Notes under the pieces: model-generated
Databases searched by the model: none
Told to the model about the DNA's origin: nothing
Seen by the model: only the letters and a program-made list of their open reading frames with translations
Assembly (NCBI GenBank): GCA_031459715.1
Contig: JAVKIA010000004.1
Span: 2,755-66,754 of the forward strand
DNA length: 64,000 nt
Direction of reading: 5' to 3'
Source of the DNA: Candidatus Humicultor tengchongensis
GTDB lineage: Bacteria > Sysuimicrobiota > Sysuimicrobiia > Sysuimicrobiales > Humicultoraceae
Made by a program: the position numbers and the translations under genes
Part shown: positions 7,150 through 48,331 of the stretch, piece after piece
Layout: every line of letters begins with the position of its first letter
Position numbering within the stretch: position 1 is the stretch's first letter

Positions 7150-7151
7150 AG

Positions 7152-9012: not shown

Positions 9013-9076
9013 GGACTGCCCTGGGACAGTGTGACCGCTCACCTCTGCCTGGGGCCCAGGGGGAACGAGGGCCCGC

Positions 9077-9913: not shown

Positions 9914-9929
9914 AGTGAGTGCAACCCCA

Positions 9930-12149: not shown

Positions 12150-12165
12150 CCTCCCCCGGGCGATG

Positions 12166-15005: not shown

Positions 15006-15011
15006 CGCCGG

Positions 15012-15449: not shown

Positions 15450-15453
15450 GGTC

Positions 15454-16563: not shown

Positions 16564-16567
16564 GCGG

Positions 16568-17047: not shown

Positions 17048-17128
17048 CTTTCTCCCTCCCTCCTGGGCCGCCGGTAACTACCGGCGGTCAAACACTCCAA
17101 TTGTAGCCGCCGTCAAGGCCGGCCGCAG

Positions 17129-20331: not shown

Positions 20332-20346
20332 CTCGCTGGATACTGC

Positions 20347-21051: not shown

Positions 21052-21085
21052 TCAATCGCATATCGGCTGCAGCACTCCCGCGCGG

Positions 21086-21715
21086 TCAGGAGGTCTCCGG
21101 CCGCGGCGCCGAGGGGTTCAGCGCAGCCCTGACCCGGGCGATAGCCTGCTTCTGCAGCCGGTAGAAGTGGGAGAGGCTGATACGCAGCGCACCGGCCACC
21201 TGTCGTGGGTCCTGGCGGGTGAGGAACGCCCGCAGGATGGCCCGCTCCCGCCCCGGGAGGTCGGCCACGACCGCCCGGATCTGCTCGTAGAGGACCCGAT
21301 CCTCCACCCGCAGCAGGGAGAGCTCCGCCTCCAGGTCGCCCAGCGCACCCCCCGGCACCAGTTCCTCCGCCAGGAGCTGGTCCAGGGAAAGCTCGCCGGT
21401 GCGGCGGGCGAAGGCGTTGAGCATGCGGCCGCGAATGCGGTAGGCAGCGAAGGTGCTGAAGCGGACCCCGCGGCCCGGGTCGAAGCGCTCCACCGCCTCG
21501 ATCAGGCCCACTGTCCCCTCCTGAATCGTGTCCATCAGGAGCGCCTGCGGCGGACGCAGCTGCATGGCCAGCTTGAAAACCAGCGGCTGGTAAGCCTCGA
21601 TCAGGCGGAGGCGACTGGCCGCATCGCCGCTGCGGTACTGCGCCCACAGCCCTGCCTCCTCATCGGGGCGGAGCAGGTTGACCTTTTGGAGCTCACGCAG
21701 ATACTCCTCAAACAT
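21086..21715 (-). CDS. Sigma-70-family RNA polymerase sigma factor (group-3 / sporulation- or FliA-like size)
   Basis: 209 aa with region 2 (LIEAYQPLVFKLA…DTIQEGTVGLIEAVERFDPGRGVRFSTFAAYRIRGRMLNAF) and a region 4 HTH (RQVAGALRISLSHFYRLQKQAIARVR). Confidence 0.75.
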   Translation of the reverse strand: MFEEYLRELQKVNLLRPDEEAGLWAQYRSGDAASRLRLIEAYQPLVFKLAMQLRPPQALLMDTIQEGTVGLIEAVERFDPGRGVRFSTFAAYRIRGRMLNAFARRTGELSLDQLLAEELVPGGALGDLEAELSLLRVEDRVLYEQIRAVVADLPGRERAILRAFLTRQDPRQVAGALRISLSHFYRLQKQAIARVRAALNPSAPRPETS

Positions 21716-21799
21716 GGCGCGCCTCTGTGCGCCTGTCCTCTCCCGCTTGGGGCGAATTCGTCCGCCCGGGGCGAAATCCTGCGCCCGGGCCCGCCGGAA

Positions 21800-24700: not shown

Positions 24701-26263
24701 GTCCACGTGCAGCCCGCCGGCCTGGCCCGGGCCCATCCTCCCCGCAGCCTCCGCGAACAGTGCCTTGGGGGCGCGGCCCAGCACGACGCTCCCCTGCAGC
24801 CGACCGCTCAGGGGGAGGCGCAGCCCGGCACGGGCCAGCAGCTCCGGCGGGAGGTTCTCGACCTCCGCCGCGGCCAGCAGCGTCCCGCCGCTGCCCATGG
24901 CCAGGCGCAGCTCGCCCTGCAGGCGGGCGTCTCCTGCCACCGCGGTGACGTCCCGCAGGACGAGGAGGTCGCCCAGGAGGGAAAGCCCCGCCGACTCCAC
25001 GGCCACGGGCTGTCGGTTCACCGCGCCACGAGCCCTGATGATCGTCCCCTGAATCAGCGGAGCGGACCAGGAGCCGGTGATGCGCACGTCCGCGCCCGTG
25101 GTGCCCTCAAGGCGGACTCGCGCTGTGGGGAAGAGGAGGCGCTGCACCGCGGCCAGGTCCAGCCGCGGCGAGGTCACCACCAGGTCCAGCCGGCGGCCGA
25201 AGCGCAACGCCGCTTCCCCGCGTAGACGTAGCCACGACCCATCGACCTTAAGGCTCAGAGCGTCGGTAGCCACACGGTCGTTGTCCACACGGAGCAGGCC
25301 GGACATCCCGTACAGGCGGGTCCGCTGCGGCAGCAGCGTTGCCGCCCCGTCCACAAGGCGCACGCTGCCCCGGTAGTCCAGAGTACGCCTCCCTCCCCAC
25401 GGCGCCCTCAGCAGGTGGAGTTGCGCGTCCGCTGCCCCCCCGGTGAAGACCAGGGCTGGCGTGCGCACGAGGTACGGCCCCCACTGTACCAGGGGGGCGC
25501 CCTCCGCCCGCAGGTCGGCGTCCAGCACGCCGCGGTCGAGGAGGTACCTCCCCTGCAAGGTGACCGGCGTGCGCCTGCCCGTGTGCAGGCTGACCAGAGC
25601 CGCCTCCAGCTCCACGGTCGGCGCCAGGCGGAAGTCTGCCCGGCCGCTGACCTGGACGAAACGCGCGCGGAACGGATACGGCGGCCCGGAGTGGTCGGTG
25701 AGAGTAACCCTCCCATCCCGCACGACGACCAGAGGCGCCAGGCCCGCGCCCTTCATGGCCGGGGCACCCGGCTGGGCTACCAGGTCCAGCACGTTCCACC
25801 GCCCGGCGGAGGAGATCTCCAGCCAGATCTCCGGACGGACCAGGGTGATGGTGGTGATGCTGCGCAGGACACCGCGGCGGCGCAGCAGGTCGCCCAGCAG
25901 GGCGGCGGGACGGAAGGAGACGACGATCTGCGCGGCCGTAATGATGGCACCCTCGGCCGTGGGCTCTCTGCGGCCGACGGTCACCCCTTCAAGGACCACG
26001 CCTCGCAGCGGGTCGCCGCGCAGGGCGCCGATCTGCACCGGCCGCTGGAACTGGCGCGCGGCCGCCGCCTGCACCGCCCGGCGGGCCTGCTCGTGCAGCC
26101 GCCCCGAAGTCGCGACGGCGTACAGGACGGCTCCGCCCGCGGTTAGGAGGACAACGGCCAGGACGAAGGATCGACGAAACATGGGCGGCTTGGCTCCACC
26201 AGACACTATGCCCTGCTGTCCTGAAAACGGAACTCTGCGCCCGCCTTTCAGAAAAACGGCCAC
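21800..26263 (-). CDS. tamB: TamB/AsmA-like translocation-and-assembly module protein (1487 aa)
   Basis: Giant ORF with an N-terminal TM anchor (FRRSFVLAVVLLTAGGAVLYAV), a long repetitive beta-rich body and a DUF490-like C-terminus (…FTVQYDFARPLQLRVGRLL…SLEWRF). It lies directly upstream of the sigma gene, anti-sigma candidate and bamA, on the same strand. Confidence 0.8.
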   Translation of the reverse strand: MAVFLKGGRRVPFSGQQGIVSGGAKPPMFRRSFVLAVVLLTAGGAVLYAVATSGRLHEQARRAVQAAAARQFQRPVQIGALRGDPLRGVVLEGVTVGRREPTAEGAIITAAQIVVSFRPAALLGDLLRRRGVLRSITTITLVRPEIWLEISSAGRWNVLDLVAQPGAPAMKGAGLAPLVVVRDGRVTLTDHSGPPYPFRARFVQVSGRADFRLAPTVELEAALVSLHTGRRTPVTLQGRYLLDRGVLDADLRAEGAPLVQWGPYLVRTPALVFTGGAADAQLHLLRAPWGGRRTLDYRGSVRLVDGAATLLPQRTRLYGMSGLLRVDNDRVATDALSLKVDGSWLRLRGEAALRFGRRLDLVVTSPRLDLAAVQRLLFPTARVRLEGTTGADVRITGSWSAPLIQGTIIRARGAVNRQPVAVESAGLSLLGDLLVLRDVTAVAGDARLQGELRLAMGSGGTLLAAAEVENLPPELLARAGLRLPLSGRLQGSVVLGRAPKALFAEAAGRMGPGQAGGLHVDYLRAGGWYADAEVAFPYLVAGRGKTVLRAAGSVSRRGILDVDAAATGLDLREVARQIGAPPRLQATVEAAGRVTGTRSEPVFNGTVLSGPGTLASLEFDSAQGPLRVSRHALATPGLVLREGRGTYLVSGTVRWKDPSSVALTVQAEGIPAASLIRSAAVPLHLTGRLSGRLTVGGTVTRPLASGRVTLLEGSVQRQRVDEAAATFRWQGGALTLEALRARVGDSVLTARGTVDRTGALSLSFAVRDLDLKHLTALPAEVVQMAGHLDLQGRVEGTAADPAVVAAFSARDLVLNRQPFDRADGVVRWASGRLALEPVTLSQGEGTYTVRGILGLRPPVLDLHGEVSRGSLATLLSLGRLRAPVPLDGRLDGIVTVQGTRARPSAALQARLTRGRLGDQPIDEVDVGLSFRNDVVRVDRLRGRSGEGIFAARGQVVLHGDSQLEVGGTDLNLALLRPLLRPERPLAGTLTFTTQINGRWQDPEVGLSLDVRRGSVNGLRFDSLVANAFYRDGQLHVEQALLSQDGHRVKGVGVIPLGPGRGVLAERPMRFEVSLVQADLSILALLLPPVQESTGRLEGQVLLSGTPGRPVMSGGMTVRDGHIRLRGLNPPLEAVQAGISFSQDRLSLSSFTARLGEGRLEATGSVAIAHFRPDRVERLAVRARDARIEAPPFFTGAVDADLVLTGSLTGAQAPPELTGEVTVKRGDLDALGLLPAPGRQAASRGPDLRLRDLRLTSGEDLTVHLGRMRVELAPGDTLSVGGTLRQPSVTGRLTAQRGAVTVFGRTFTLREGEARFLPQLGMRPLISLDAETDLLLADGSTTKVFLEARQVFPEEIVDRVVLRSDPPHSREQIVGLLAGGAVAEPGADVQALLRAELGRALFGGVEAAIARALGLGEFTVQYDFARPLQLRVGRLLVRDLYLRLTTIFEQETRFVWSLEWRFLRNVMLAFSVDNAGRSGALLQYTLRF

Positions 26264-26392
26264 CCGCGGGCGCCGGGTTCGGGCCGGCGCAGCACGAAGG
26301 GACGGAGGCGACCGCCCCCGTCCCTAGTGTCCGCAGGCTAACCTTCCCGCCCTCGCCGCCCGGGCGGGGCCGTGCCCGGGCGGCCCGCCGCC

Positions 26393-34090: not shown

Positions 34091-34307
34091 GCAGGACCGG
34101 GGCGAAGGGCCCCTGGCCAGGATCCCGGTAAGGAAGCGCTTTGGGCACAGGCAGAAGCGTGGCTGGGGGGGCAGGCTTCGATCCTGCGCTGCCGGAGTCA
34201 AAGTCCGGTGTCCTCCCGATTAGACGACCCCCCAGCGCACCTGTATTGTCCTGAGGAGCGGGAAGCCGGTCAACCCCTGGGGGCCCGGTGGGGCGGGCCC
34301 GTCCTCA

Positions 34308-34706
34308 TCATGTGACCCGCCCCTCTCCCGCAAGGGCGACCACGTCTATCTCCACCAGCGCCCCGCGCGGCAGGCGGCTGACCGCCACCGTGGTCCGCGC
34401 CGGCGGCTCCTCCTGGAAGAACGCACCGTATTCCTCGTTCATCGGACCGAAGTCGTCCATCTGCGCCAGGAAGACCGTGCACTTGACCACGCGCCGCAAC
34501 GACGACCCCGAGGCCTCCAGGATGGCCCGGACGTTCTCCAGGACCTGACGGGTCTGCTGCTTGATGTCCGTCCCCACCAGCTGGCCGGTCTGGGGGTCCA
34601 GGGCGATCTGGCCCGAGAGGAAGAGCAGTCCTCCTGCCCGCACCGCCTGAGCGTAGGGGCCGATGGCCCGCGGCGCCCGGTCCGTGCTGATGATCTCCCG
34701 CTGCAT
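34308..34706 (-). CDS. ridA: RidA/YjgF-family reactive-intermediate deaminase
   Basis: 132 aa: …APRAIGPYAQAVRAGGLLFLSGQIALDPQTGQLVG…TVFLAQMDDFGPMNEEYGAFF…RTTVAVSRLPRGALVEID. Confidence 0.9.
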   Translation of the reverse strand: MQREIISTDRAPRAIGPYAQAVRAGGLLFLSGQIALDPQTGQLVGTDIKQQTRQVLENVRAILEASGSSLRRVVKCTVFLAQMDDFGPMNEEYGAFFQEEPPARTTVAVSRLPRGALVEIDVVALAGEGRVT

Positions 34707-34854: not shown

Positions 34855-35088
34855 CTACAGGGCCTGCAGCATGGCCTGCAGGCGGCGGCGCAGCGGCTCT
34901 GGGGCGGGCCGCCCCGCGCACCGCTGCCTGATGACCTCCCGGAGCCTCAGCTCGAACTCGTGGCGCGGTCCGCAGTCGCGGCACAGCCGCAGGTGTTCCT
35001 GGATCAGGTGGGAGGTCTGGGGATCGAGCTCCCGGTCCATGTACTGCCACAGCAGACGCACGACCTCTTCGCAGTGCACCGCGCTCAT
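34855..35088 (-). CDS. Zinc-binding (ZAS, HX3CX2C) anti-sigma factor, RsrA-like
   Basis: From the ATG at 35088: MSAVHCEEVVRLLWQYMDRELDPQTSHLIQEHLRLCRDCGPRHEFE…, with the HLIQEHLRLCRDC ZAS motif. ATGA overlap with the ECF sigma gene stop. Confidence 0.8.
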   Translation of the reverse strand: MSAVHCEEVVRLLWQYMDRELDPQTSHLIQEHLRLCRDCGPRHEFELRLREVIRQRCAGRPAPEPLRRRLQAMLQAL

Positions 35089-35693
35089 CGCCCCTCCCCT
35101 CCCTCGCCGGAGGGAAGCCGCCGCGCCCGCAGGGCGTACTCCCAAAGCGCCCGCTGCAGCAGCCATCGTCCGCGGAAGAGGCGGGACATCACCGTGCCAA
35201 TGGGGACTCCCAGGATGCGGGCGATCTCTTTGTAGGTGAACCCTTCCAGGTCCGCCAGGATGACCGCGGTGCGGAAAGCCTCCGGCAGCGAGGCCAGGGC
35301 CGCCTCCACGTCGGCGTCCATGATCGTCTGCAGGATGACCTCTTCCGGGTTCCCCTGGCGGCGCAGCTCCTCACTGGCCCGGACGCGGCTGTAGAGGTAC
35401 TGTGTCTCCATGTCCTCCTGGTCCACCACCTCTGGTTCGCGGTCCGTCTTGCGGTAGGCGTCGATGTAGGCGTTCATCAGGATGCGGTACAGCCAGGCGC
35501 GGGCGTTGGAGCCCGGCTGGAAGGTGTGAAAGGAGCGCCAGGCCTTGAGGAAAGTCTCCTGCACCAGGTCCTCCGCGGCGTCCCGGTCGCGGGTTAGGCG
35601 CAAAGCCGCGCTGTAGAGACGGTGGAGGTGCTCCTCCGCCAGCGCCGCAAACTCCCGGGCGGCCGGGGTCTGTGGCGAAGGCTGGTTCACCAT
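35085..35693 (-). CDS. ECF (group 4) RNA polymerase sigma factor, SigR/SigE-like
   Basis: 202 aa with region 2 (…LVQETFLKAWRSFHTFQPGSNARAWLYRILMNAYIDAYRK) and region 4 (EAFRTAVILADLEGFTYKEIARILGVPIGTVMSRLFRGR). Confidence 0.9.
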   Translation of the reverse strand: MVNQPSPQTPAAREFAALAEEHLHRLYSAALRLTRDRDAAEDLVQETFLKAWRSFHTFQPGSNARAWLYRILMNAYIDAYRKTDREPEVVDQEDMETQYLYSRVRASEELRRQGNPEEVILQTIMDADVEAALASLPEAFRTAVILADLEGFTYKEIARILGVPIGTVMSRLFRGRWLLQRALWEYALRARRLPSGEGGEGR

Positions 35694-35988: not shown

Positions 35989-36411
35989 CTACTCTGCGCC
36001 GGGGGCGTGCCCGTAGATCATGTCGTGCAGGGTGAGGCGTTCCAGCACCCCTTCAGCCGCGGCCTTCATGGCCATCCAGATGGGGCGGATGCCGCAGCCC
36101 GGGAGGTAAGCGCAGTTGGGATCCTCCACCCCCACGCACCACCACGGCGCTGCTCCCTCCTCCAGGACCTCGAAGGCCTCCCGCAGGGTAATCTGGGCTG
36201 GAGGGCGGGAGAGGGTGTGTCCACCGGCCGGCCCCCGTTTGCTGGCCACCAGCCCGGCCCGGCGCAGCGAGGCCATGATCTGGTTGAGGTAGGATTCGGG
36301 CAGGCCCTGCCGGGCGGCGATCTCGTGGCTCTGGACGTACCCCTCGCCGTAGTGGCGGGCCAGATCCACCAGCGCGCGCAGGCCGTACTCTGCGCGGCTG
36401 CTCACCTTCAC
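35989..36411 (-). CDS. Rrf2-family transcriptional regulator (IscR/CymR-like)
   Basis: The GTG at 36411 gives VKVSSRAEYGLRALVDLARHYGEGYVQSHEIAARQGLPESYLNQIMASLRRAGLVASKRGPAGG…, a canonical Rrf2 wHTH. It lies just downstream of the Cys/sulfur-carrier operon. Confidence 0.8.
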   Translation of the reverse strand: MKVSSRAEYGLRALVDLARHYGEGYVQSHEIAARQGLPESYLNQIMASLRRAGLVASKRGPAGGHTLSRPPAQITLREAFEVLEEGAAPWWCVGVEDPNCAYLPGCGIRPIWMAMKAAAEGVLERLTLHDMIYGHAPGAE

Positions 36412-36446: not shown

Positions 36447-36848
36447 TCACTGCACGACCACGTCCTCTTCGCTCACCCGGCCGTCGACAATGCGGAAGCC
36501 CCGCACCTCTGGCCGCTGCGCCTGTTGCAGCGATATTATCACATAGACCGCCTCCGGGTAGAATGCCCTGGCCACGTCCGTGCGCGAGGGCGCGGCCTGG
36601 CTGGCGGTGTGCGAGTGGTAGATGCCCACGATCTCCAGTCCTTCCCGGTCCATCTCCCGCAGGAACTGCAAGAGCTGCCGGTCGTCCAGTCGGTAGGTGT
36701 AGGGGCTCTGATCGACGTTGTGCCCGCGGTAGACGCGGAGGACCTGCCCGTCCCGCCCTGCCAGCAACCCACAGCACTCCAGGGGAAAGGTCTCCCGCGC
36801 GTGGGCGATCATCTCTTCCAGGTGCTCCCGCGTCAGCCGCAGCGTCAT
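36447..36848 (-). CDS. JAMM/MPN+ metalloprotease (Mec+-like, sulfur-carrier C-terminal peptidase)
   Basis: 133 aa with JAMM motifs E…(ECCGLLAG)…HSHTASQAAPSRTD, i.e. HxHx7Sx2D. Its start codon abuts the cysM-like stop. Confidence 0.85.
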   Translation of the reverse strand: MTLRLTREHLEEMIAHARETFPLECCGLLAGRDGQVLRVYRGHNVDQSPYTYRLDDRQLLQFLREMDREGLEIVGIYHSHTASQAAPSRTDVARAFYPEAVYVIISLQQAQRPEVRGFRIVDGRVSEEDVVVQ

Positions 36849-37802
36849 CTATCCGAACACCCCGGTGGAGAGGTAGCGGCCGCCGCCGTCGGGCAGAACC
36901 ACCACAATCACCCCCTGGCCGATCTCGCGGGCCACCTGCAGCGCCGCCAGCATGGCCGCGCCGGCCGAGGGGCCGACCAGCCAGCCTTCCTCCCGTGCCA
37001 GGCGCCGAGTCATGGCGTAGGCGGCCTCGGTGGTAACGGCGATCACCCGGTGGTGCACGGAGGGGTCATAGATGCCCGGGACGATGGAGGTGGCCATGTG
37101 CTTCAGCCCCTCCAGGCCGTGCAGCGGGCCGTCGGGCTCCACGGCGATGATCTGCACGTGTGGCCGCTCCTCCCGCAGCCGCCGTCCCACCCCCACCAGG
37201 GTGCCCGAGGTGCCCAGGCCGGCGATGAAGTGGGTGAGGCGGCCCTCGCTCTGGGCGATGATCTCCGCTCCCGTGGTCTCGTAGTGGGCGCGCCAGTTGG
37301 CGGGATTGTTGTACTGATCCAGCAGGAGGTAACGGTACGGCGCGGCGGCAAACAGCTGCCGCGCCAGGCGGATGGCTCCGTCGGACCCCTCCAGCGGGTC
37401 GGAGGGGATGACCGTGGCCCCGAAGGCCTGGATGATCCGCCGTCGCTCCACGCTCACGTTCTGCGGCATGACCAGCTCCACCCGGTAGCCCTTGGCCGCT
37501 CCGATCATGGCGTAGGCGATGCCCGCGTTCCCCGAGGTGGCATCCAGGAGGACCTTCCCCGGGGTGAGCCGGCCCTCGCGCTCCGCCTCCTCGATCATCC
37601 GCAGCACGGGCCGGTCCTTCACCGACCCTCCGGGATTGAACCACTCCGCCTTGGCCAGGATCTCCACCCCGGGGGGGACACCGCCCAGGCGCGTCACCCG
37701 CAGCAGCGGCGTGCGACCGATGCACCCCAGGAGGTGGCTGCCGAGACGGTGGGCGGGCGAGACCGGGCGGGTGGACACTCCTGCCGTCACCTCAGTCGTC
37801 AA
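36849..37802 (-). CDS. cysM: Cysteine synthase B-like PLP enzyme (CysM / CysO-dependent type)
   Basis: 317 aa: …LLRVTRL…ILAKAEWFNPGGSVKDRPVLRMIEEAEREGRL…TSGNAGIAYAM…, PLP fold-type II. Confidence 0.8.
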   Translation of the reverse strand: MTTEVTAGVSTRPVSPAHRLGSHLLGCIGRTPLLRVTRLGGVPPGVEILAKAEWFNPGGSVKDRPVLRMIEEAEREGRLTPGKVLLDATSGNAGIAYAMIGAAKGYRVELVMPQNVSVERRRIIQAFGATVIPSDPLEGSDGAIRLARQLFAAAPYRYLLLDQYNNPANWRAHYETTGAEIIAQSEGRLTHFIAGLGTSGTLVGVGRRLREERPHVQIIAVEPDGPLHGLEGLKHMATSIVPGIYDPSVHHRVIAVTTEAAYAMTRRLAREEGWLVGPSAGAAMLAALQVAREIGQGVIVVVLPDGGGRYLSTGVFG

Positions 37803-38631
37803 AGAGGACCGTGGGCTCCGGGTAGAGACGCACCCGATGGGCCAGCAGGCGCGCGTGGATCAGATCGCGCAGGGCGGCGTTCTTCTCCTCCACCGTGCCG
37901 GGCGCACGCAGCACCTCCAGCGGCAGGTTGACTCGCAGCGCGCGGTTGGGGATGACATGGCGGGTGATCCCGGTGGGCAGCTTCTGCGGGAGGACGGCCA
38001 GCCGCAGGATCTGCGCCTTGGTGAAGCGCGGGAAGACCACCAGCACGCCGATCCGGTCGTATTCGGCACGCAGGAGGCGGCGGTCCGTGGTCAGGACGCG
38101 GTAGATGGGTACGCGTCCGTTGTAGGCGTCCACCACGGCGCGCATGGCCCCCACCCGCGCGGTGAGGGACCGCTCCGCCCGCACACCCAGCACCCCCTGC
38201 TCCCAGATCAGGCCGCAGGCCAGGCGGCCGTTGCGCAGCGCGCCGGCCAGCCGGGCGGTGCTGTCCAGGGGAACCAGCGGTAGCTGTGGAAGCAGGCGCG
38301 CCAGCGCGGGGCCATCCTCCCGCAGCAGGTGGTGCCACACCTCCACGCGCACCGCAGCCGCGCCGTAATCCACGACCTGAAGGAGGTGGTGCGGGAGGCC
38401 CAGGCGCTGCAGGGCGCAGGTGCGGTTCGCCCCGTCCAGAATCACGTAGCCGCCATCCGGCAGCGCCGCGGCCAGCGGCGGGTTGCGCAGCACCCCCTCC
38501 TGCTCCAGCTGCTCCACCAGCGCGGCGACGCGCCTCGGATCGGCGTCCTCGTGCAGGTGGACCTCCGCCGCCGGGACGATGCGCAGGGTGGGGAGGACCT
38601 GGGCGGAGGAGGAACGGGCGGGAGGCGTCAT
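37792..38631 (-). CDS. ParB/Srx-like (sulfiredoxin-fold) domain protein of unknown function, embedded in the sulfur-carrier operon
   Basis: 279 aa. The N-terminal region shows a ParB/Srx-type motif (GGYVILDGANRTCALQRLGLPHHLLQVVDY). There is an 11-nt overlap with the downstream cysM-like gene and a 4-nt overlap with the upstream CBS-like gene. Confidence 0.5.
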   Translation of the reverse strand: MTPPARSSSAQVLPTLRIVPAAEVHLHEDADPRRVAALVEQLEQEGVLRNPPLAAALPDGGYVILDGANRTCALQRLGLPHHLLQVVDYGAAAVRVEVWHHLLREDGPALARLLPQLPLVPLDSTARLAGALRNGRLACGLIWEQGVLGVRAERSLTARVGAMRAVVDAYNGRVPIYRVLTTDRRLLRAEYDRIGVLVVFPRFTKAQILRLAVLPQKLPTGITRHVIPNRALRVNLPLEVLRAPGTVEEKNAALRDLIHARLLAHRVRLYPEPTVLFDD

Positions 38632-40028
38632 GGGCGACCGAGGACCCTGGCCAGGTGGTCGATGACGTCGATCTTGGTGACGATGCCGACGACGCGTCCG
38701 CTGTCGATGACCACAGCCGCGTTGGCGCTGAGGAAGATCTCCGCCAGCTCGCCCACCGGCGTCTCCGGCGTGACCACCGGGGCGCCGGGGTTAACCAGAA
38801 GGGTGATGGGGTCGTCGAGGCCGCCTCCGCCCTCCAGCAGGTAGGAGAGCAGATCCACCTCGCTGACCATGCCCACCAGGCCGCCGTCAGCCACCACCGG
38901 CAGCTGGGAGACGTCGTACTGCTTCATCTTGGCGATCACCGCGCGCACCTGCTCGTCGGGCGTCGCGGTGATCAGCGGCAGGCCCTTGGCCCGCAGCAGG
39001 TCGGCCACGGTGCCCAGCTCCGCCTCCAGGTAGCCGTTCTCCCGCATCCAGTCGTCGTCGAAGACCTTGGAGAGGTAGCGAAACCCGGAGTCGGGCAGGA
39101 TGACCACAGCCCGCTTCCCCTCTCCGTGGTCGGGCAGACCGCGCAGGTAGCGCAGGGCCCCGGCCACGGCGCTGCCGCTGCTGCCTCCGCAGAACAACCC
39201 CTCTTCCCGCACCAGGCGACGGGTCATGAGGAAGGATTCCCGGTCGGTGACCTGGACCACCTCATCCACGACGCGGAAGTCCATGGTTCCGGGAAGGAAG
39301 TCCTCGCCGATCCCTTCCACCTTGTAGGTGTGCGCCTCCCCCAGCGTGCCGCTGCGGAAGTAGTGGCTGTACACCGAGCCCACCGGGTCCACACCCACCA
39401 CCTTCACCTGAGGGTTGCGCTCCTTAAGGAAGCGTCCCACTCCGGAGATGGTCCCCCCGGTGCCCATGCCACAGACGAGGATGTCCACGCGGCCGCCGCT
39501 GTCCTCCCAGATCTCCGGGCCGGTGGTTTCGTAGTGAGCGGCGGGGTTGTCCGGGTTGTGGTACTGGTCGGCGTACCAGGCGCCGGCGGTCTCCTCCGCC
39601 AGCCGCCGGCTGACGCTGTAGTAGGAGCGCGGGTCCTGGGGCGCCACCGCCGTGGGCGTGATCACCACCCTGGCGCCGAAGGCGCGCAGGAGGCGGATCT
39701 TCTCCTCGGACATCTTATCCGGCATCACGAAGATGCAGCGGTAGCCGCGCACGGCTGCCACCAGGGCCAGGCCCATGCCGGTGTTGCCCGAGGTGGCCTC
39801 AACGATGGTCCCCCCCGGCCGCAGCCTCCCCTGCGCCTCCGCCACAGCCACCATGCGCACGCCGATGCGGTCCTTCACCGACCCTCCGGGGTTGAGGAAC
39901 TCCAGCTTGGCCACCACGTCGGCGCGCACGCCCCGGGCCACCCGGTGCAGGCGCACCAGCGGGGTCCCTCCCACCACCTCCAGGATGCTGTCGTGGATGC
40001 GTTCGCCGGCGCGCACCTGCGTCCTCAC
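38628..40028 (-). CDS. Cystathionine beta-synthase-like PLP enzyme with C-terminal tandem CBS domains
   Basis: The true start is the GTG at 40028, in a GTGA overlap with the cysO-like stop that I checked. It contains …SILEVVGGTPLVRLHRV…KLEFLNPGGSVKDRIGVRMV…TSGNTGMGLAL…, and the C-terminus has two CBS motifs (…VRAVIAKMKQYDVSQLPVV…, …GVVGIVTKIDVIDHL). The 571-aa track ORF is over-extended. Confidence 0.8.
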   Translation of the reverse strand: MRTQVRAGERIHDSILEVVGGTPLVRLHRVARGVRADVVAKLEFLNPGGSVKDRIGVRMVAVAEAQGRLRPGGTIVEATSGNTGMGLALVAAVRGYRCIFVMPDKMSEEKIRLLRAFGARVVITPTAVAPQDPRSYYSVSRRLAEETAGAWYADQYHNPDNPAAHYETTGPEIWEDSGGRVDILVCGMGTGGTISGVGRFLKERNPQVKVVGVDPVGSVYSHYFRSGTLGEAHTYKVEGIGEDFLPGTMDFRVVDEVVQVTDRESFLMTRRLVREEGLFCGGSSGSAVAGALRYLRGLPDHGEGKRAVVILPDSGFRYLSKVFDDDWMRENGYLEAELGTVADLLRAKGLPLITATPDEQVRAVIAKMKQYDVSQLPVVADGGLVGMVSEVDLLSYLLEGGGGLDDPITLLVNPGAPVVTPETPVGELAEIFLSANAAVVIDSGRVVGIVTKIDVIDHLARVLGRP

Positions 40029-40327
40029 CCCTCGGCCTCCCCCGCCGTCCCCCCGGCCATGGCCGGAATGATGGACACCTCGTCCTGCGGCCCCACCGGG
40101 GTCTCCTCCCCGCGCAGGGTGCGCATCTCGTCGCCGTTGACGAAGATGTTGATGTAGGCGCGCACGTGCCCCTGGTCGTCCAGCACCTGGGCGCCCACCC
40201 CCGGGTAGGCCGCGTGCAGGTTCGCCAGCACCTCCCGCACCGTGCTTCCCGGGATCTGCACCCGGCTCTGCCCGCCGGTCTGCCGCCGCAGCGGCGCGGG
40301 CAGGTAGACAGTTGCCATGGACATCAC
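40025..40327 (-). CDS. MoaD/ThiS/CysO-family sulfur-carrier protein with a C-terminal extension after the Gly-Gly
   Basis: 100 aa: …VRAYINIFVNGDEMRTLRGEETPVGPQDEVSIIPAMAGG-TAGEAEG*. This is a beta-grasp carrier ending in GG followed by a 7-residue tail. A JAMM protease is encoded in the same operon. Confidence 0.75.
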   Translation of the reverse strand: MMSMATVYLPAPLRRQTGGQSRVQIPGSTVREVLANLHAAYPGVGAQVLDDQGHVRAYINIFVNGDEMRTLRGEETPVGPQDEVSIIPAMAGGTAGEAEG

Positions 40328-40393: not shown

Positions 40394-41545
40394 CTAGGAC
40401 CCCAGCGCCTGGTCCAGGTCCGCCATCAGATCCTCCGGGTGCTCCAACCCCACCGAGAGGCGCAGCAGCCCCTCCTCCACCGCCAGGGGTGTCCCCGCCA
40501 CGCTGGCGTGAGTCATCGACGCCGGGTGATCGATCAACGACTCAACCCCGCCCAGGCTCTCCGCCAGGAGGAACAGTCGGGTCGCGGACGCGACCCGACG
40601 GGCTTCCGCCTTCCCGCCGTGGACCACGAACGAGACCATGCCGCCGAAGCAGCGCATCTGCCGCGCGGCCAGCTCGTGGCCGGGATGGTCGGCCAGCCCC
40701 GGATAGAGGACCAGGCTGACCCGCGGATGCCGGCGCAGGAAGTGAGCCACCTTCGCCGCGTTCTGCGGGTGCCGCTCCATGCGCACCGCCAGGGTGCGCA
40801 GCCCGCGCAGAACCAGCCAGCAGTCCAGCGGGCCGGGGACGGCGCCCACCGCATTTTGCAGGAACTTCAGCCGCTGGTACAGGTCGGCGCGGGAGGTGAG
40901 CACCGCCCCGCCCACTACGTCGCTGTGGCCCCCCAGGTACTTGGTCGTGGAGTGGACCACCAGGTCGGCGCCCAGGCGCAGCGGCTGCTGCCCGTAGGGG
41001 GTGGCAAAGGTATTGTCCACCGCCACCAGCGCCCCGGCGGCGTGGCCCAGCTCCGCCAGGCGGGCGATGTCCAGGATGTGCAGGTAGGGGTTGGTGGGCG
41101 TCTCCAGGAAGAGCAGCCGGGTGCTTTCCCGCATCGTCCGCTCCACCGTGGGAAGGTTGCGCATGTCCACGAAGGTGGTCTCGATGCCATAGCGCTGCAG
41201 GACACGAACGAAGAGGCGGTGTGTGCCGCCGTAGACATCATCCGGGGCCACCACGTGGTCCCCGGGGGCAAGCAGCAGGGCCACTGCGGTGATGGCCGCC
41301 ATCCCCGAGGCGAAGGCCAGCCCGTACTCCGCCTCCTCCAGAGAGGCCAGTGCCCGCTCCAGGGCGGTGCGGGTGGGGTTGGCGGTGCGGGAGTAATCGT
41401 ACCCCCGGTGCTCCCCTGGAGCCTGCTGCACGTAGGTAGAAGTCTGGTAGATGGGAGGGATCACCGCCCCGGTGGTGGGGTCGGGCGCCTGGCCATCGTG
41501 GATGGCCCGCGTCTCGAAGCGGTGGGAGGACGGCATCAGGAGCAC
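40394..41545 (-). CDS. Cys/Met-metabolism PLP enzyme (cystathionine gamma-synthase / gamma-lyase family, MetB/MetC-like)
   Basis: 383 aa: …FETRAIHDGQ…SRTANPTRTALE…, with the conserved PLP-lysine region (…HSTTKYLGGHSDVVGGAV…). Confidence 0.85.
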   Translation of the reverse strand: MLLMPSSHRFETRAIHDGQAPDPTTGAVIPPIYQTSTYVQQAPGEHRGYDYSRTANPTRTALERALASLEEAEYGLAFASGMAAITAVALLLAPGDHVVAPDDVYGGTHRLFVRVLQRYGIETTFVDMRNLPTVERTMRESTRLLFLETPTNPYLHILDIARLAELGHAAGALVAVDNTFATPYGQQPLRLGADLVVHSTTKYLGGHSDVVGGAVLTSRADLYQRLKFLQNAVGAVPGPLDCWLVLRGLRTLAVRMERHPQNAAKVAHFLRRHPRVSLVLYPGLADHPGHELAARQMRCFGGMVSFVVHGGKAEARRVASATRLFLLAESLGGVESLIDHPASMTHASVAGTPLAVEEGLLRLSVGLEHPEDLMADLDQALGS

Positions 41546-42243
41546 ACCGTCTCCGCCGCCAGCGGGGCCAGCCGCTCTTCCACCTCCGGCCGCCCCACCG
41601 GCAGCAGCTCCAGGGCGTACACTTCGGCGAACCGTCGTGCGTAGGCATCGGCCACCGCGGCAACGGAGACCTCCTGGCCCAGCAGACGGCTCATGGAGGT
41701 GACGGGGCGGTTCAGGCCGCAGGGGTTGATCCAGGTGAAGGGCTCCAGATCTGTGGTGACGTTCAGGGCCACCCCATGCATGGTCACCCGCCGCTTCACC
41801 GCCACGCCCACGGCGGCCAGTTTCGCCTCGCCTACCCAGACGCCGGGGAAGCCGCGCATCCGGACGGCGTTGATCCCGAAGTCGGCGACGGTTCGGATCA
41901 CCGACTCCTCCAGCGCTCGCATGAAGCGCACCACGTCCTCATCCATGGCCCGCAGGTCGAGGATGGGATACGCCACCAGCTGCCCCGGCCCGTGGTAGGT
42001 GACCCCGCCGCCGCGCTCGATCTGGTAGATCTCGACGCCGCGCTGCCGCAGCACCTCGGGAGGCAGCAGCAGGTGCCCCCGATCCCCGGACCGCCCCAGG
42101 GTGATCACCGGGTGATGCTGCAGCAGCAGGACCACGTCGGGGATGGCTGCCCGCTGCCGGGCGGCGACCAGCCGCCGCTGCAGCGCCCAGGCGTCGGCAA
42201 AGGGCGTCAGCCCTTCAAGGGTCACCAGCCATGCATCCCGCAT
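41536..42243 (-). CDS. lipB: Octanoyltransferase LipB
   Basis: From the ATG at 42243: MRDAWLVTLEGLTPFADAWALQRRLV…HHPVITLGRSGD…GGGVTYHGPGQLVAYPIL…, with the LipB catalytic Cys region NPCGL. Confidence 0.85.
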   Translation of the reverse strand: MRDAWLVTLEGLTPFADAWALQRRLVAARQRAAIPDVVLLLQHHPVITLGRSGDRGHLLLPPEVLRQRGVEIYQIERGGGVTYHGPGQLVAYPILDLRAMDEDVVRFMRALEESVIRTVADFGINAVRMRGFPGVWVGEAKLAAVGVAVKRRVTMHGVALNVTTDLEPFTWINPCGLNRPVTSMSRLLGQEVSVAAVADAYARRFAEVYALELLPVGRPEVEERLAPLAAETVCS

Positions 42244-42481
42244 CTTGGCTCCTATTCTAGCCGCATGCCCACGGCCAGGCGTGACCGCAGGCAGCAACGA
42301 CCCGGCACGGTCGGACGCTCATGGCAACGTCGTCTGGGCTGGTCGGGCCTGTGCAGCCCGACGGGAGGGCGAAGGCCGCTAGGCCTCCGCCCGGAGACAG
42401 ATGCAGGAGCGAGGGCGCGGAGCCAGGGGGTGCGCAGGTACTGGGCGCACAGACATGACAGCAGGCATCATAGCACGACAT

Positions 42482-43548
<1,067 letters not shown>

Positions 43549-43552
<4 letters not shown>

Positions 43553-45183
43553 CCCTCTCCCCTCCACCGCTCCTGCGCCAGCAGCAGCCACAGGGAGAGG
43601 GAGGAGAATCCCAGCAGCATCAGCGCGGGAGCGGCTGCCCGGGCGAAGAACCCTTCGGTGGCCGTGGACCAGATGCGCGTGGCCAGCGTCTCGAAGCCCG
43701 TGGGGCCAAGCAGCAGCGTCGCCGGCAGCTCCTTCATCGTGGTGAGGAAGACCAGCGCCGCCGCTGCCACCACCCCCGGGCGGACCAGCGGCAGGGTAAC
43801 GGTGCGCAGGACCTGGAAGGGGCTGCGCCCCAGGGTCTGCGCCGCCTCCTCCTGTGAGGGGCTCACCTGCGCCAGGCCCGCACGCAGCGGGCCCAGTGCC
43901 TGGGGCAGGAAGTGAACGGCGTAGGCGAAGATCAGTAGCCCCAGCGTCTGGTAGACGAACGGCAGATAGCGTGCGGCGAAGAAGACCAGCGATAGCGCCA
44001 GGACGATGCCGGGAAGGGCGAACCCGGCGTAGGTGAGGCGCGAGATCAGGCCGGCCAGCCACCCCCCGTGGCGCACGGAGAGGATGGCCACGGGCAGCGC
44101 CGCCACCACCGTGACTCCCGCCGCCAGGACGGAGGCATACAGGGAGCGAAAGGCGGGGCGCAACGCCAGAGCCAGGGGCTCACCCTGCCGTACTCCCACC
44201 ACCAGCCAGTAGCCGATGACCCCTACAGGGACAAGCACGCCCAGCACGGTCGCCAGCCCGCACAGCGTCAGGGCCGGCCACCGCCAGGGGCCCAGCCGCC
44301 GGGGGGGAAGGGCACGGGAGGTCCCCCGCAGGCGGTAGAACCGGCCCCGCCCTTGCCGATCCTCCAGGAGCACTATCAGCGAGGCCATGGCTACCAGCAC
44401 CAGGGAGAGGACGGCCGCGTAGTGCCGGTTGAAGGACGCCTGATACTGCAGGTAGATGGCCGTGGTGAAGGACTCGAACTGCATCATGGAAACGGCACCG
44501 AAGTCGCTGAGCACGTACAGCGCCACCAGCACGGCACCCGCGCCCACCCACGGCCTCAAGTGGGGGACGGTGACGCGGCAGAAGGCGCGCCAGCCTCCAT
44601 CGCCCAGGGTGCGCGCTGCCTCCTCCAGGGCCGGGTCCATCCCGCGCAGGCCCGCCCGGGCGCTTAGCAGGACGTAGGGATAGGTCACCAGGGTGAGGGT
44701 GATCCAGGCACCGGGGAACCCGTAAAGGCCCCCTGGCCGCAAGGCGATCCCCAGGCGGTCTGCCAGGTGGTGCACCACCCCCCACGGCCCGAAGACGGTA
44801 GCCACGATGATCCCGCTGATGAAGGAGGGTACCGCCAGCGGCAGAACGGTGAGTGTACTCCACAGCCGCGCGCCCGGCAGGTCGGTGCGGGTGGTCACCC
44901 AGGCCAGGGGCAGGGCGACGGCCACCGCGCTGGCGGTGACGGCCGAAGCCAGAAGCACGGTGCGCAGGAGGATGCGGAGTGTACGGGGCTGCACCAGCAG
45001 GCGCCAGATCCCTTCGTCCGCGCCGGCCGCACGCACTCCCAGGTAGAGCACGGGCAGCAGCAGCGCCCCTGCCACCAGCAGCGAGGGTAGCAGAACTAGA
45101 GGGCCGGGAGGCCGACGACGGACCGGACCGCGGACCGGGCCCTCCCTGCGCAGCGTCAGGGCAGACGGCAGGGCCACAGCCAT
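43549..45183 (-). CDS. Fe3+ ABC transporter permease, fused two-domain (FbpB-like)
   Basis: 544 aa with about 12 TM helices and two EAA-like loops (…ARTLGDGGWRAFCRVTVPHLRP…, …AAQTLGRSPFQVLRTVTLPLVRP…). Confidence 0.8.
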
Positions 45184-45188
45184 GGCCG

Positions 45189-46223
45189 CTACAGGATACC
45201 TGCCTCCCGCAGCAGGCGGAGGGTCTCCTCCAGAGCCTGCAGGTGGTTGAGGTCCACGGGCGGGGTGCTGATCTGCGCCAGCGGCCGCAGCAGGGGGTGG
45301 GCGGGAATGCCGGCGACCAGCGGGTACTCGAAAGTCTCAGTGGCGAAGTAGCGCTGCGCCTGGGGGGATAGCAGGAACTCCACCAGGCGCAGGGCCGCGG
45401 CACTGCGCGCAGTGTCTATAACGCCCACGCCGGCCACGTTGATCAGGTTGCCGGCGTCAGGCCCGGGGAAGAAGTAGTTACGCACCGGGAAGCCCTCCCC
45501 CCGCTCCTGCAGGAAGCGGAAGAGGTAGTAGTGGTTGACGAATCCCACGTCGATCTCGCCCGCGCCCAGGGCAGCGACGATGGCGGTGTTGTTGCGGTAG
45601 GCCCGTGGGGCGTTGGCCCTCATTCCCAGGAGCCACGCCCGCGTCCGCTCATTCCCCCACAGCAGGCGCATGGCCGTCACGTGCGCCTGGAAGGACCCGT
45701 TGGTCGGCGCCCAGCCCATGCGCCCCCGCCAGCGGGGGTCTGTGAAGTCGCGGATAGAGGCGGGAAGATCGCGGGGGGAGAGGCGACGCGTGTTGTACGC
45801 GACGACGCGGGCCCGGCCGCTAATCCCCACCCACAGCCCCTCGCCAGAGCGAAAGCGGGGTTCCACCTTCTGCAGAAGCCCCTCCGGCAGGCGCTGCAGC
45901 CGGCCGGCGTAGGCCAGCGCCCCCAGCGCACCGGCATCCTGAGCGAAGTAGACGTCCGCAGGACTGTTGGCCCCCTCCTCCATGATGGTGGCGGCGAGCT
46001 CGGCCGTCTCCCCGTAACGGACGCGTAACCGGACTCCGCTGGCCTGAGCGAACCGCTCCAGCAGCGGCCCCACGAGCTCCTGATTGCGTCCGGAGTAGAC
46101 CGTGACCGTGGCCGGCTGCGCTCCCAGAGTGGCGAAGGACCCGAGGAGGAACGGCAGGAGGGCCACCAGGAGGACTATGGGGCGCGCGCACCGCAGGCAG
46201 GCACCGCTCATGGCCTCTCCCAT
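45189..46223 (-). CDS. Fe3+ ABC transporter periplasmic substrate-binding protein (FbpA/AfuA-like)
   Basis: 344 aa with a signal peptide, then …TVTVYSGRNQELVGPLLERFAQASGVRLRVRYGETAEL…, an SBP_bac_1/iron-binding fold. Confidence 0.75.
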   Translation of the reverse strand: MGEAMSGACLRCARPIVLLVALLPFLLGSFATLGAQPATVTVYSGRNQELVGPLLERFAQASGVRLRVRYGETAELAATIMEEGANSPADVYFAQDAGALGALAYAGRLQRLPEGLLQKVEPRFRSGEGLWVGISGRARVVAYNTRRLSPRDLPASIRDFTDPRWRGRMGWAPTNGSFQAHVTAMRLLWGNERTRAWLLGMRANAPRAYRNNTAIVAALGAGEIDVGFVNHYYLFRFLQERGEGFPVRNYFFPGPDAGNLINVAGVGVIDTARSAAALRLVEFLLSPQAQRYFATETFEYPLVAGIPAHPLLRPLAQISTPPVDLNHLQALEETLRLLREAGIL

Positions 46224-46310: not shown

Positions 46311-46327
46311 CCAACAATCGTTGTTGG
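46311..46327. promoter_or_regulatory. 7-3-7 inverted repeat CCAACAAtcgTTGTTGG in the divergent fbpA/fur promoter region: candidate Fur-family operator
   Basis: A perfect 7-bp inverted repeat centred about 20 nt upstream of the fur ATG (46342), within the 118-bp intergenic region shared with the divergent iron ABC operon. Confidence 0.4.
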
Positions 46328-46341
46328 GTACACCGTGCGGC

Positions 46342-46770
46342 ATGATCAGCGCCGCTGAGCTGCGCCAGCGCCTCCGGGAGGCCGGCCGGCGGGTCACGCC
46401 CCAGCGCGACCTGATCTTCCGCCTGCTGGAGGAGACCCAGGCCGACCACCCCTCCGCCGAGATGCTCCACCTGCGGGCCGCGCGCCAGATGCCCTCCATC
46501 TCCCTGCGCACGGTCTACGCAGTGCTGGCCGAGCTACAGGAGCTGGCCGTGGTGCGGCCCCTGGACCTGGGCACCGGCAGCACGCGATTCTGCACCAACG
46601 TCCGCAACCACCACCACCTGGTCTGCGAACGCTGCGGCCGGGTAAAGGACGTCTTCATGGAGCTGGCCTCGCTGGAGGTCCCCGAGGAACAGCGCAGCGG
46701 GTTTCTGGTCAAGGAGCAGTCGGTGGTCTTCCGCGGCCTGTGCGCCGGGTGCCGGGGCGCGGGCGCCTGA
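46342..46770 (+). CDS. fur: Fur-family metalloregulator (Fur/Zur/PerR)
   Basis: From the ATG at 46342 (the track ORF starts at an upstream TTG): MISAAELRQRLREAGRRVTPQRDLIFRLLEE…HHHLVCERCGRVKDV…, with HHH and CxxC metal sites. Confidence 0.85.
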   Translation: MISAAELRQRLREAGRRVTPQRDLIFRLLEETQADHPSAEMLHLRAARQMPSISLRTVYAVLAELQELAVVRPLDLGTGSTRFCTNVRNHHHLVCERCGRVKDVFMELASLEVPEEQRSGFLVKEQSVVFRGLCAGCRGAGA

Positions 46771-46796: not shown

Positions 46797-48155
46797 CTAC
46801 GGCTGCAGCGCCGCCAGCTCCCGGGTGGCCGCGGCCACCGCCTCTGCGGGATAGGCGTAGTCCTCCAGACGGCCGCTCAGGTACTCCTGGTAGGCCTGCA
46901 GGTCGAAGTGGCCGTGCCCGCTGAGGTTGAACAGGATAACCCGCGGGACCCCCAGCTCCCTCGCCTCCAGGGCCTCGTCGATGACCCGGCGCACGGCATG
47001 CGCCGACTCGGGCGCGGGGACGATCCCCTCGCTGCGGGCGAACTGCACCGCCGCCTCGAAGACCGCGCGCTGGCCGTAGGCTGCGGCCTCCACATACCCG
47101 GCATCGTAGAGCAGGCACAGCGACGGCGCGTCGCCATGGTAGCGCAGGCCGCCGGCGTGGATCCCCGGGGGGATGAAGGTGTGTCCCAGGGTGTACATCT
47201 TGAACAGGGGGGTGGTGGCCGCGGTGTCGCCGAAGTCGTAGAGGTAGCGGCCGCGGGTGAGCGAAGGGCAGGCCTCGGGCTCCACGGCCACGAAGCGGAC
47301 GTCCTTGCCCTTGAACCGGTCCCGCAGGAACGGGTAAGCCAACCCGGCGTAGTTGCTCCCCCCGCCCACGCAGCCGATGACCACGTCGGGGTACTCACCG
47401 GCCAGCTCCATCTGCCGCCTGGCCTCCAGGCCGATGACGGTCTGGTGCAGGAGGACGTGGTTGGCCACGCTGCCGATGGAGTACTTGGTGTCGTCATGCG
47501 TGGCCGCGTCCTCCACCGCCTCGCTGATGGCGATGCCCAGACTCCCCGGAGAGTGCGGGTCCCGCTGGCGGATCGTCCGCCCGGCATGGGTCCTCTCGCT
47601 GGGGCTGGGCAGGACCTCCGCCCCCCAGGTCTCCATGATCACCCGGCGGTAGGGCTTCTGCTCGTAGGAGACCCGCACCATGTACACGGTGCACTCCAGG
47701 CCGAAAAGGCGGCAGGCCAGGGCCAGCGCGCTGCCCCACTGTCCGGCGCCGGTCTCCGTGGTCAGGCGACGCACCCCCGCCTCCCGGTTGTAGAAGGCCT
47801 GGGCCACCGCGGTGTTGGGTTTGTGGCTGCCCGCGGGGCTGGTGCCCTCATACTTGTAGTAGATGTGCGCCGGCGTCCCCAGGGTCCGCTCCAGGCGGTG
47901 GGCACGGTATAGCGGCGTGGGGCGCCACAGCTGGTAGATCTCCCGCACCGGCTCGGGGATTTCCACCTCCCGCTCGGTGGAGACCTCCTGCTGGATGATC
48001 TGCGGGGGGAAGAGCGGCGCCAGGTCATCCGGACCGATGGGCTGCTTGGTGGCCGGATGGAGCACCGGGGGGAGCGGTAGCGGCAGGTCGGCCAGGATGT
48101 TGTACCAGGCCCCAGGCAGGTCGCGCTCGTCCAGCACGAATTTGGTCTGCGGCAT
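46797..48155 (-). CDS. TrpB2-type tryptophan synthase beta-chain-like PLP enzyme
   Basis: From the ATG at 48155: [25 protein letters not shown]…[18 protein letters not shown]…, the TrpB2 (indole-salvaging) subgroup. Confidence 0.8.
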
Positions 48156-48331
48156 GCAGCCTCCACCTCCGGACAGGGAATGCGCTGGATGTAGTGCCGA
48201 AGACAACGGATAGCGGTTCGTCTCCGTGAGGGGAAATCCCTGCGCCGGATGGCGGGGAGCGGACCCAGGAGCTTCCGTCCCCTGCGGCCCTCGTCCCCAG
48301 AAATCCGCGGCACCGGACTGCCGGGGTGGGC

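Follow-up and report, generated by a model that had tools for sequence, protein, structure and literature searches.

The stretch of DNA analysed here, hereafter the window, comprises 64,000 nucleotides (71% GC) of Candidatus Humicultor tengchongensis (assembly GCA_031459715.1, contig JAVKIA010000004.1, positions 2,755 to 66,754). We focus on an open reading frame of its minus strand (37792..38631), which lies among genes of cysteine biosynthesis and encodes a homologue of free L-serine kinases, referred to below as the kinase homologue. The gene starts with an ATG and its product of 279 aa consists of an N-terminal domain of the ParB/sulfiredoxin (Srx) fold and a C-terminal domain, the key residues being H27-E28, D66-G-A-N-R70, W99 and T223-R224-H225. 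The reading frame is a real gene, because the genomes of at least 532 species contain a confirmed relative of its product. Moreover, its GC content at the three codon positions (0.81/0.46/0.91) follows the same pattern as that of confirmed neighbouring genes.

A first-pass annotation of this DNA had described a 279-aa frame with a ParB/Srx-type DGxxR motif, placed in a sulfur-carrier operon and overlapping its neighbours by 4 nt upstream and 11 nt downstream. The motif is present as D66-G67-A68-N69-R70 and is invariant in 28 aligned homologues, and the operon does contain both a ThiS-fold CysO-like gene (PF02597) and a JAMM gene (PF14464). The upstream overlap also stands, since the ATG of the kinase homologue shares 4 nt (ATGA) with the stop of the preceding gene. 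The downstream one, in contrast, requires cysM to start at TTG 37802; with the in-frame GTG 37790 as start, a gap of 1 nt separates the two genes. Under either start, the kinase homologue and cysM are tightly packed.

In the order of transcription, all on the minus strand, the genes encode LipB, a cystathionine gamma-lyase/synthase, CysO, a cystathionine beta-synthase (CBS), the kinase homologue, CysM, a JAMM protease, an Rrf2 regulator, an extracytoplasmic function (ECF) sigma factor, a zf-HC2 anti-sigma factor and RidA. The LipB-like octanoyltransferase (41536..42297; PF21948, E 5e-51) stands directly upstream of the cysteine block. It is followed by the cystathionine gamma-lyase/synthase, a pyridoxal 5'-phosphate (PLP) enzyme of Cys/Met metabolism (40394..41545; PF01053, E 2e-148; NF005871, 565.6 bits with a cutoff of 513), and by the CysO-like ThiS/MoaD-fold sulfur carrier (40025..40327; PF02597, E 2e-12), whose true start is likely ATG 40318 (MATVYLP...) and whose C-terminus reads ...PAMAGG before a 7-residue tail, TAGEAEG. 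The CBS gene (38628..40028; TIGR01137, 542.5 bits with a cutoff of 510) encodes PALP and a CBS-domain pair, and starts either at GTG 40028, in a GTGA overlap with the cysO stop, or at GTG 40016.

Downstream of the kinase homologue, the CysM-type cysteine synthase of PLP fold type II (36849..37802, alternatively from GTG 37790; PALP, PF00291, E 2e-71) carries the PLP lysine motif GSVKDRP. It scores above the cutoff of TIGR01136 cysKM (347.6 bits, cutoff 344) and below that of TIGR01138 cysM (369.5 bits, cutoff 394), and its PDB matches include the CysM proteins of E. coli and M. tuberculosis. The ATG of the next gene comes directly after the cysM stop and opens a Mec-like JAMM/MPN metalloprotease of 133 aa (36447..36848; PF14464 Prok-JAB, E 2.4e-28; HSHx7SxxD motif, HSHTASQAAPSRTD). 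The final gene of the conserved block encodes an Rrf2-family (CymR/IscR-like) regulator (35989..36408; PF02082, E 1.8e-35), which plausibly controls the entire block. With CBS and the gamma-lyase, the operon also encodes a second, transsulfuration route to cysteine. Rfam, promoter and terminator scans of the operon region gave no riboswitch and no clear signals for the operon.

What kind of protein is encoded at 37792..38631 was examined by profile, sequence and structure comparison. Pfam returned no match at all, PF02195 included, even at E ≤ 10. Among the NCBIfam models, the best match was SbnI (NF033589, E 5e-17; residues 11-271 against model positions 3-246 of 254), a model named 'bifunctional transcriptional regulator/O-phospho-L-serine synthase', and the second was the archaeal 'ADP-dependent L-serine kinase SerK' (NF053625, E 3e-8). 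A phmmer search of PDB sequences retrieved only SbnI (5UJD, 6NR6 and 5UJE; ~1e-11 to 1e-12) and SerK with its relatives (5X0B and related entries, 1VK1; ~1e-8). Using a family profile built from 28 members with identities down to 45%, we obtained stronger, full-length alignments with SbnI (2.7e-24) and with SerK/PF0380 (3e-12 to 4e-11), which covered, of 282 profile positions, 18-256 (5UJE) to 16-279 (5UJD, 6NR6) for SbnI and 22-244 for SerK.

The same picture emerged from structure. An AlphaFold2 model computed from the family alignment (mean pLDDT, the predicted local distance difference test, 91.8; predicted template modelling score, pTM, 0.87) was compared with the PDB by Foldseek, and the top nine entries were all SerK, PF0380 or SbnI (E 1e-16 to 4e-18, TM 0.64-0.83, 243-266 columns). 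In the predicted structure, the protein thus has the ParB/Srx fold, as the first-pass annotation had called it, and along its whole length it matches the two-domain architecture of the SerK/SbnI family. These findings indicate that the protein belongs, over both domains, with the free L-serine kinases SbnI and SerK. It very probably uses a nucleotide.

Noc, ParB, Atu1540 and Srx aligned over 75-90 columns only (E ~1e-3 or worse). What Srx and ParB/Noc share with the kinase homologue is a nucleotide-binding fold of ~80 residues with a G-x-x-R loop; the Srx cysteine and the helix-turn-helix (HTH) and dimerisation domains are missing, and the additional C-terminal domain is common only to the serine kinases. 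A canonical ParB/Noc CTP-dependent DNA clamp, as defined by an HTH DNA-binding domain, a C-terminal dimerisation domain and a GxxRxxA CTP-binding box, was considered and rejected, given that 75-90 residues align, that the best canonical ParB reached E 0.3 with the family profile and that PF02195 is not matched.

The residues on which catalysis depends in the characterised kinases are kept. In an ungapped alignment, E28 corresponds to Glu20 of SbnI and to Glu30 of SerK, and D66 corresponds to Asp58 of SbnI. Glu30 is the residue mutated (E30A, E30Q) in the substrate and product complexes of SerK, according to the titles of entries 5X0E/G/J/K, and the kinase activity of SbnI is reported to need Glu20 and Asp58 in a paper citing Verstraete 2018 (PMC9641203). 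Across the 28 homologues, E28, W99, R224 and H225 are as invariant as the five residues D66 to R70, and T223 varies only to Ser. A C-terminal P-x-G-x-T-R(H/F) motif is common to the family, SbnI and SerK. The motif FGGCHR of human Srx aligns with LDGANR of the family profile, and Srx-type chemistry is excluded by this alignment because A68, which is invariant, stands at the position of the catalytic Cys.

With SbnI, the ATP-dependent free L-serine kinase of the staphyloferrin B pathway (S. aureus, S. pseudintermedius) and its top sequence match, the kinase homologue therefore has in common the two-domain fold (TM 0.67-0.78), the catalytic pair and the C-terminal motif. The two proteins differ in identity (~21-22%), in the loop, which reads DGVHR in SbnI and DGANR here, and in context, siderophore synthesis for the one and carrier-dependent cysteine synthesis for the other. 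SbnI is encoded beside SbnA, a fold-type-II PLP enzyme that uses O-phospho-L-serine (OPS), and feeds OPS to it. Nothing in the analysis of the kinase homologue points to the DNA- or heme-binding role of SbnI. In fold, the ADP-dependent kinase SerK (TK0378 of T. kodakarensis, 5X0B; PF0380 of P. furiosus, 1VK1) comes closest (E 3.6e-18, TMt 0.82), and it shares the T223-R224-H225 motif as well as the catalytic Glu. Its route in T. kodakarensis, from serine to OPS and then to cysteine through a cysteine synthase-type enzyme, has the physiological logic that would also apply to the kinase homologue (PMC5120207). SerK differs in being archaeal, with 17-19% identity, and the accessible sections of the SerK paper mention no sulfur carrier for its route.

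Gene fusions, counted only where called genes or Pfam domains confirmed them, gave further information about the partners of the family. Three relatives of ~371-376 aa (P0050, P0076, P0085) possess an N-terminal ThiS domain ending in ...PAMAGG, then a linker, then the kinase. The CysO-kinase P0050 is one uninterrupted called gene on two contigs (L081 3318-4433; L082 857-1972), in the order LipB-[CysO-kinase]-CysM-JAMM-Rrf2-sigma-antisigma-RidA and with no separate carrier gene. Another relative, P0143, is a JAMM-kinase fusion. Long gene calls such as that in L024 (380 aa) were rejected as fusions, CysO and kinase being in different reading frames there.

In P0185, P0242 and P0196 (582-603 aa), the kinase is fused to a 3-phosphoglycerate dehydrogenase-type catalytic region that lacks the regulatory C-terminus. 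Pfam 2-Hacid_dh was found in all three; TIGR01327 matched P0185 and P0242 at E ~1e-112 to 1e-114 (model positions 1 to ~305 of 525) and P0196 more weakly (E 1e-47). One dehydrogenase-kinase gene (L083 859-2670) is immediately preceded by a PALP gene. Through these fusions, the family is connected with phosphoserine metabolism: a link to the enzyme that opens the phosphoserine pathway would make little sense if serine or phosphoserine were not what the family acts on. This arrangement echoes the adjacency of serK and serA in Desulfurococcales, as described in the SerK paper (PMC5120207). A further relative of 526 aa (P0208) has 255 N-terminal residues with no Pfam match.

To place the operon in a wider context, one genome per species was scanned for relatives and the best 80 loci were examined for their neighbourhood. 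These loci belong to metagenome-assembled genomes (MAGs) labelled Armatimonadota, CSP1-3 or 'Sysuimicrobiota', to Chloroflexota (Thermoflexus, Anaerolineae), Latescibacterota and Eisenbacteria, and to a few Proteobacteria; the closest relative (90% identity) comes from an Armatimonadota MAG. An exhaustive profile search of 1.84 billion representative proteins yielded 1751 clusters at E ≤ 1e-3, of which 1100 remained at ≤ 1e-10 and 377 at ≤ 1e-30. Existing annotations call the members no more than 'hypothetical' or 'ParB N-terminal domain' proteins.

Neighbours on the same strand were counted within 5 kb in the close loci (n = 23), defined by homologues with an identity of 45% or more and by flanks of 3 kb or more on both sides. 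The Rrf2 regulator was present in 23/23, LipB in 21/23, CysM and JAMM in 20/23 each and CysO in 17/23, while CBS and the gamma-lyase/synthase were each present in 12/23. The co-occurrence with carrier, JAMM and CysM in other genomes, the absence of which would have spoken against the first-pass annotation, is thus observed in the clade that contains the window. Several loci seemingly devoid of a JAMM gene are accounted for by a CysM-JAMM fusion. One such gene (L026 8809-10230) encodes CysM with a C-terminal JAMM (PALP plus Prok-JAB) in a single polypeptide, Pfam-confirmed for this locus only; genes of similar length (463-507 aa) occur in L033, L034, L035, L038, L050 and L055. In Anaerolineae loci (L044, L053, L054, L057, L071, L075, L076, L078), the order is CBS-kinase-CysO, with CysM in some of them.

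From these observations, we consider it likely that the protein is a SerK/SbnI-type kinase of free L-serine, which would make OPS for the adjacent CysM acting with CysO-thiocarboxylate, in a pathway of the M. tuberculosis type. We infer that it phosphorylates L-serine to OPS, the donor being likely ATP and possibly ADP. E28 would serve as catalytic base, and the phosphates of the nucleotide would be bound by the D66-G-A-N-R70 loop through D66 and R70. CysM would then turn OPS into the PLP-aminoacrylate and take sulfur from the CysO thiocarboxylate and, after an acyl shift, the JAMM protease would free cysteine from the CysO-Cys adduct. Aminoacrylate formation, sulfur transfer from CysO-thiocarboxylate, acyl shift and JAMM-mediated release are the established scheme in M. 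tuberculosis. CysO itself would be thiocarboxylated by a canonical E1 of the MoeB/ThiF/MoeZ type encoded elsewhere in the genome.

The window operon and the Mec-CysO-CysM system of M. tuberculosis have the same trio, a Gly-Gly ThiS-fold carrier, a CysM-type PLP enzyme and a JAMM protease, and they are also alike in that the E1 is not among the operon genes; in M. tuberculosis, it is encoded away from cysO-cysM. The M. tuberculosis CysM, named 'O-phosphoserine sulfhydrylase' in PDB entry 3DKI, uses OPS together with CysO-thiocarboxylate, OPS coming from SerA/SerC and no kinase being part of the cluster. The window operon differs by its embedded serine-kinase homologue, which in relatives is sometimes fused to CysO or JAMM, by the tail of CysO, and by the CBS and gamma-lyase genes.

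This tail is a general property of the carriers in the set. We collected 27 CysO rows, the window included (loci L001-L075), of which one (L037) is frameshifted. In 26/26 intact homologues, PAMAGG is followed by 1 to ~25 extra, non-conserved residues, so that none ends at Gly-Gly. Such a tail implies obligatory processing, presumably by the co-encoded JAMM, which would probably first trim CysO after Gly-Gly before acting on the CysO-Cys adduct. The QbsD/QbsE system is a precedent for the maturation of a carrier after Gly-Gly by a JAMM protein.

Several observations weigh against this interpretation. Firstly, the characterised kinases share only 17-22% identity with the protein, and the equivalog cutoffs are missed by far, with 62 bits against 350 for NF033589 and 33 bits against 380 for NF053625. 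On these scores, the protein is set apart as a separate subfamily and not as an orthologue-level member of the SbnI or SerK family; its substrate specificity could therefore differ. The nucleotide is uncertain too, since a SerK-like protein from archaea has been described as binding CTP and not ATP (PMC12704722). Secondly, the CysM of the window is closer to that of E. coli (2.5e-71) than to that of M. tuberculosis (2.3e-63), and E. coli CysM is an O-acetylserine enzyme. The position of M. tuberculosis R220, occupied by Lys in the window, by Lys or Arg in the clade and by Arg in E. coli CysM, does not discriminate between OPS and O-acetylserine, because it is basic in E. coli CysM too. OPS use by the window CysM is thus a prediction, and the CBS-like enzyme might consume OPS in its place or alongside it. 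Thirdly, below 45% identity, 15/25 loci have no CysM, CBS, CysO or JAMM nearby and 10/25 keep any of them; the homologues of Thermoflexus, Latescibacterota and Eisenbacteria have mostly unrelated neighbours.

Given this divergence, the protein could be a small-molecule kinase of the same family acting on another substrate, be it threonine, a hydroxy acid or L-homoserine, which would yield O-phosphohomoserine for the cystathionine gamma-synthase-like enzyme. The Cys/Met-metabolism PLP enzyme of the operon passes the cystathionine gamma-synthase cutoff, and an O-phosphohomoserine thiocarboxylate pathway is known in Streptomyces, as cited in a preprint (bioRxiv 10.1101/2024.10.14.618325). We nevertheless regard another substrate as unlikely, for CysM and JAMM are more strongly linked to the kinase (20/23 each) than the gamma-lyase/synthase is (12/23), the fused dehydrogenase domain belongs to the serine/phosphoserine branch and SerK of T. 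kodakarensis specifically takes free serine and not threonine or homoserine (PMC5120207).

It seems equally improbable that the protein makes OPS mainly for the upstream CBS-like enzyme, acting with homocysteine or CysO-SH, and not for CysM. The start of the kinase gene overlaps the CBS stop, CBS is directly upstream in 36/80 loci, and five Anaerolineae loci (L054, L057, L071, L076, L078) keep CBS-kinase-CysO with no CysM nearby. Against this, many close loci (L008, L016, L017, L019, L020, L022, L024, L025, L081) have kinase, CysM and JAMM with no CBS. CysM is the established partner of CysO in M. tuberculosis, and we know of no OPS-dependent CBS.

Very unlikely, in our assessment, is a mainly regulatory function, in which a ParB-like protein with little or no catalysis would bind DNA and control the operon. 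DNA binding is frequent among ParB-fold proteins, and SbnI, annotated as both transcriptional regulator and OPS synthase, does regulate the sbn operon. In the model of the kinase homologue, however, there is no HTH or ParB DNA-binding domain, the resemblance to ParB/Noc being confined to the nucleotide-binding fold, and the catalytic Glu and Asp are invariant. Moreover, an Rrf2 regulator is already encoded in all the close loci, and both the translational coupling with biosynthetic genes and the fusions to enzymes and to the carrier better fit an enzyme.

The first-pass annotation had noted that the operon lacks an E1, had regarded the gene as being of unknown function and had proposed a nucleotide-dependent activating (E1-substitute) or repair role. 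The first point was confirmed for the 64-kb window: neither tblastn with an E. coli MoeB probe nor Pfam scans of ~45 genes found an E1 of the MoeB/ThiF type there. The probe, verified against 1JW9 (E 3e-164), detected E1 genes inside two related clusters, between CysO and CysM in L044 (9910-10653) and just after CysM in L075 (8710-9453), and ~6 kb downstream of the kinase in six others (L010, L012, L033, L035, L050, L055). The E1 genes in or near kinase-CysO-CysM clusters are 38-42% identical to E. coli MoeB. The probe never matched the gene under study, which has no homology to the ThiF/MoeB adenylation domain by tblastn. In related loci, the kinase homologue thus occurs together with canonical E1 enzymes and does not replace them, and the absence of an E1 from the window gives no support to replacement, because related clusters hold canonical E1 genes.

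It is serine, converted to OPS, that the protein most likely activates, and not the carrier. An activator that would take the place of the E1, such as one that phosphorylates the C-terminal carboxylate of CysO, or an Srx-like repair enzyme is hardly credible: Srx-fold enzymes do transfer a phosphoryl group from ATP to sulfur oxyacids and the family is sometimes fused to CysO or JAMM, but apart from the E1 genes just described, the Srx cysteine is replaced by A68, both domains match serine kinases with the catalytic Glu included, and the 3-phosphoglycerate dehydrogenase fusions point to a small-molecule substrate. The label of unknown function did not survive either, given the two-domain homology to SbnI and SerK and the retention of the catalytic Glu and Asp.

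Other features of the window were also recorded. Beyond the Rrf2 gene, the ECF sigma factor (35085..35693), the zf-HC2 anti-sigma factor (34855..35166) and RidA (34308..34706) follow on the same strand. Their order is repeated in L081 and L082, and related loci again have sigma and anti-sigma (clusters c2 and c6); the association of LipB upstream and that of the ECF sigma pair downstream of the cysteine block are both kept in related loci. A tRNA gene (RF00005, 56 bits; 34163..34234, minus strand) lies just downstream of RidA and a cobalamin riboswitch (RF00174, 79.6 bits, E 6e-18) at 829..1051 on the minus strand; these were the only Rfam matches in the scan of the window. A third fold-type-II PLP enzyme (46797..48206, minus strand; 469 aa, PALP E 3.5e-42) is divergent from a Fur-family regulator (46321..46770, plus strand), with an ATP-binding cassette (ABC) transporter of solute-binding protein, permease and ATPase nearby (42482..46223).

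On the minus strand, ~4400..26300 holds an LptF/G permease with an ABC ATPase, LpxA-like and LpxD-like acyltransferases, three OmpH/Skp-like proteins, an Omp85/BamA-like protein and a TamB-like protein of 1487 aa. This cluster for outer-membrane and lipopolysaccharide biogenesis indicates a diderm organism. Pfam recognises nothing in two open reading frames of this region, 12166..13968 (600 aa) and 20347..21051 (234 aa).

With regard to earlier work, the kind of enzyme is known and its mechanism is as expected once the homology to SerK and SbnI is seen; the subfamily itself is unannotated, and we did not find its cysteine-operon context described. To our knowledge, the free serine kinases characterised so far come only from the siderophore pathway of staphylococci and from a small number of hyperthermophilic archaea. 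We found no paper that links CysO with a serine kinase, SbnI or ParB, although the coverage of this search was incomplete, so that the absence is weak evidence of novelty. The 2016 paper on SerK reports no clear bacterial homologues (PMC5120207). A 2025 survey of the ParB-CTPase fold began from Pfam PF02195. Pfam does not detect the present family, which extends across Armatimonadota/CSP1-3-like lineages, Chloroflexota and further phyla.

Tentatively, and with slightly less than even confidence, we propose that these bacteria possess an undescribed, self-contained route from serine to cysteine, in which a SerK/SbnI-like kinase is an integral part of the CysO/CysM/JAMM system and which bypasses both serine acetyltransferase and SerA/SerC. 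In some lineages, the carrier would then be made as a kinase-fused pro-protein that JAMM cuts after Gly-Gly, setting free both carrier and kinase in the manner of ubiquitin fusion precursors, and the CysO-kinase fusion offers a testable case of such a JAMM-processed pro-carrier. If this is true, free serine kinases are common among uncultured bacterial phyla (at least 532 genomes, ~1100 clusters) and form a branch of metabolism that is likely to be overlooked when the ParB fold is surveyed through Pfam. The family would supply the OPS source, the missing step of CysO-dependent cysteine synthesis in these organisms, and would improve the metabolic reconstruction of MAGs as well as pathway tools such as GapMind.

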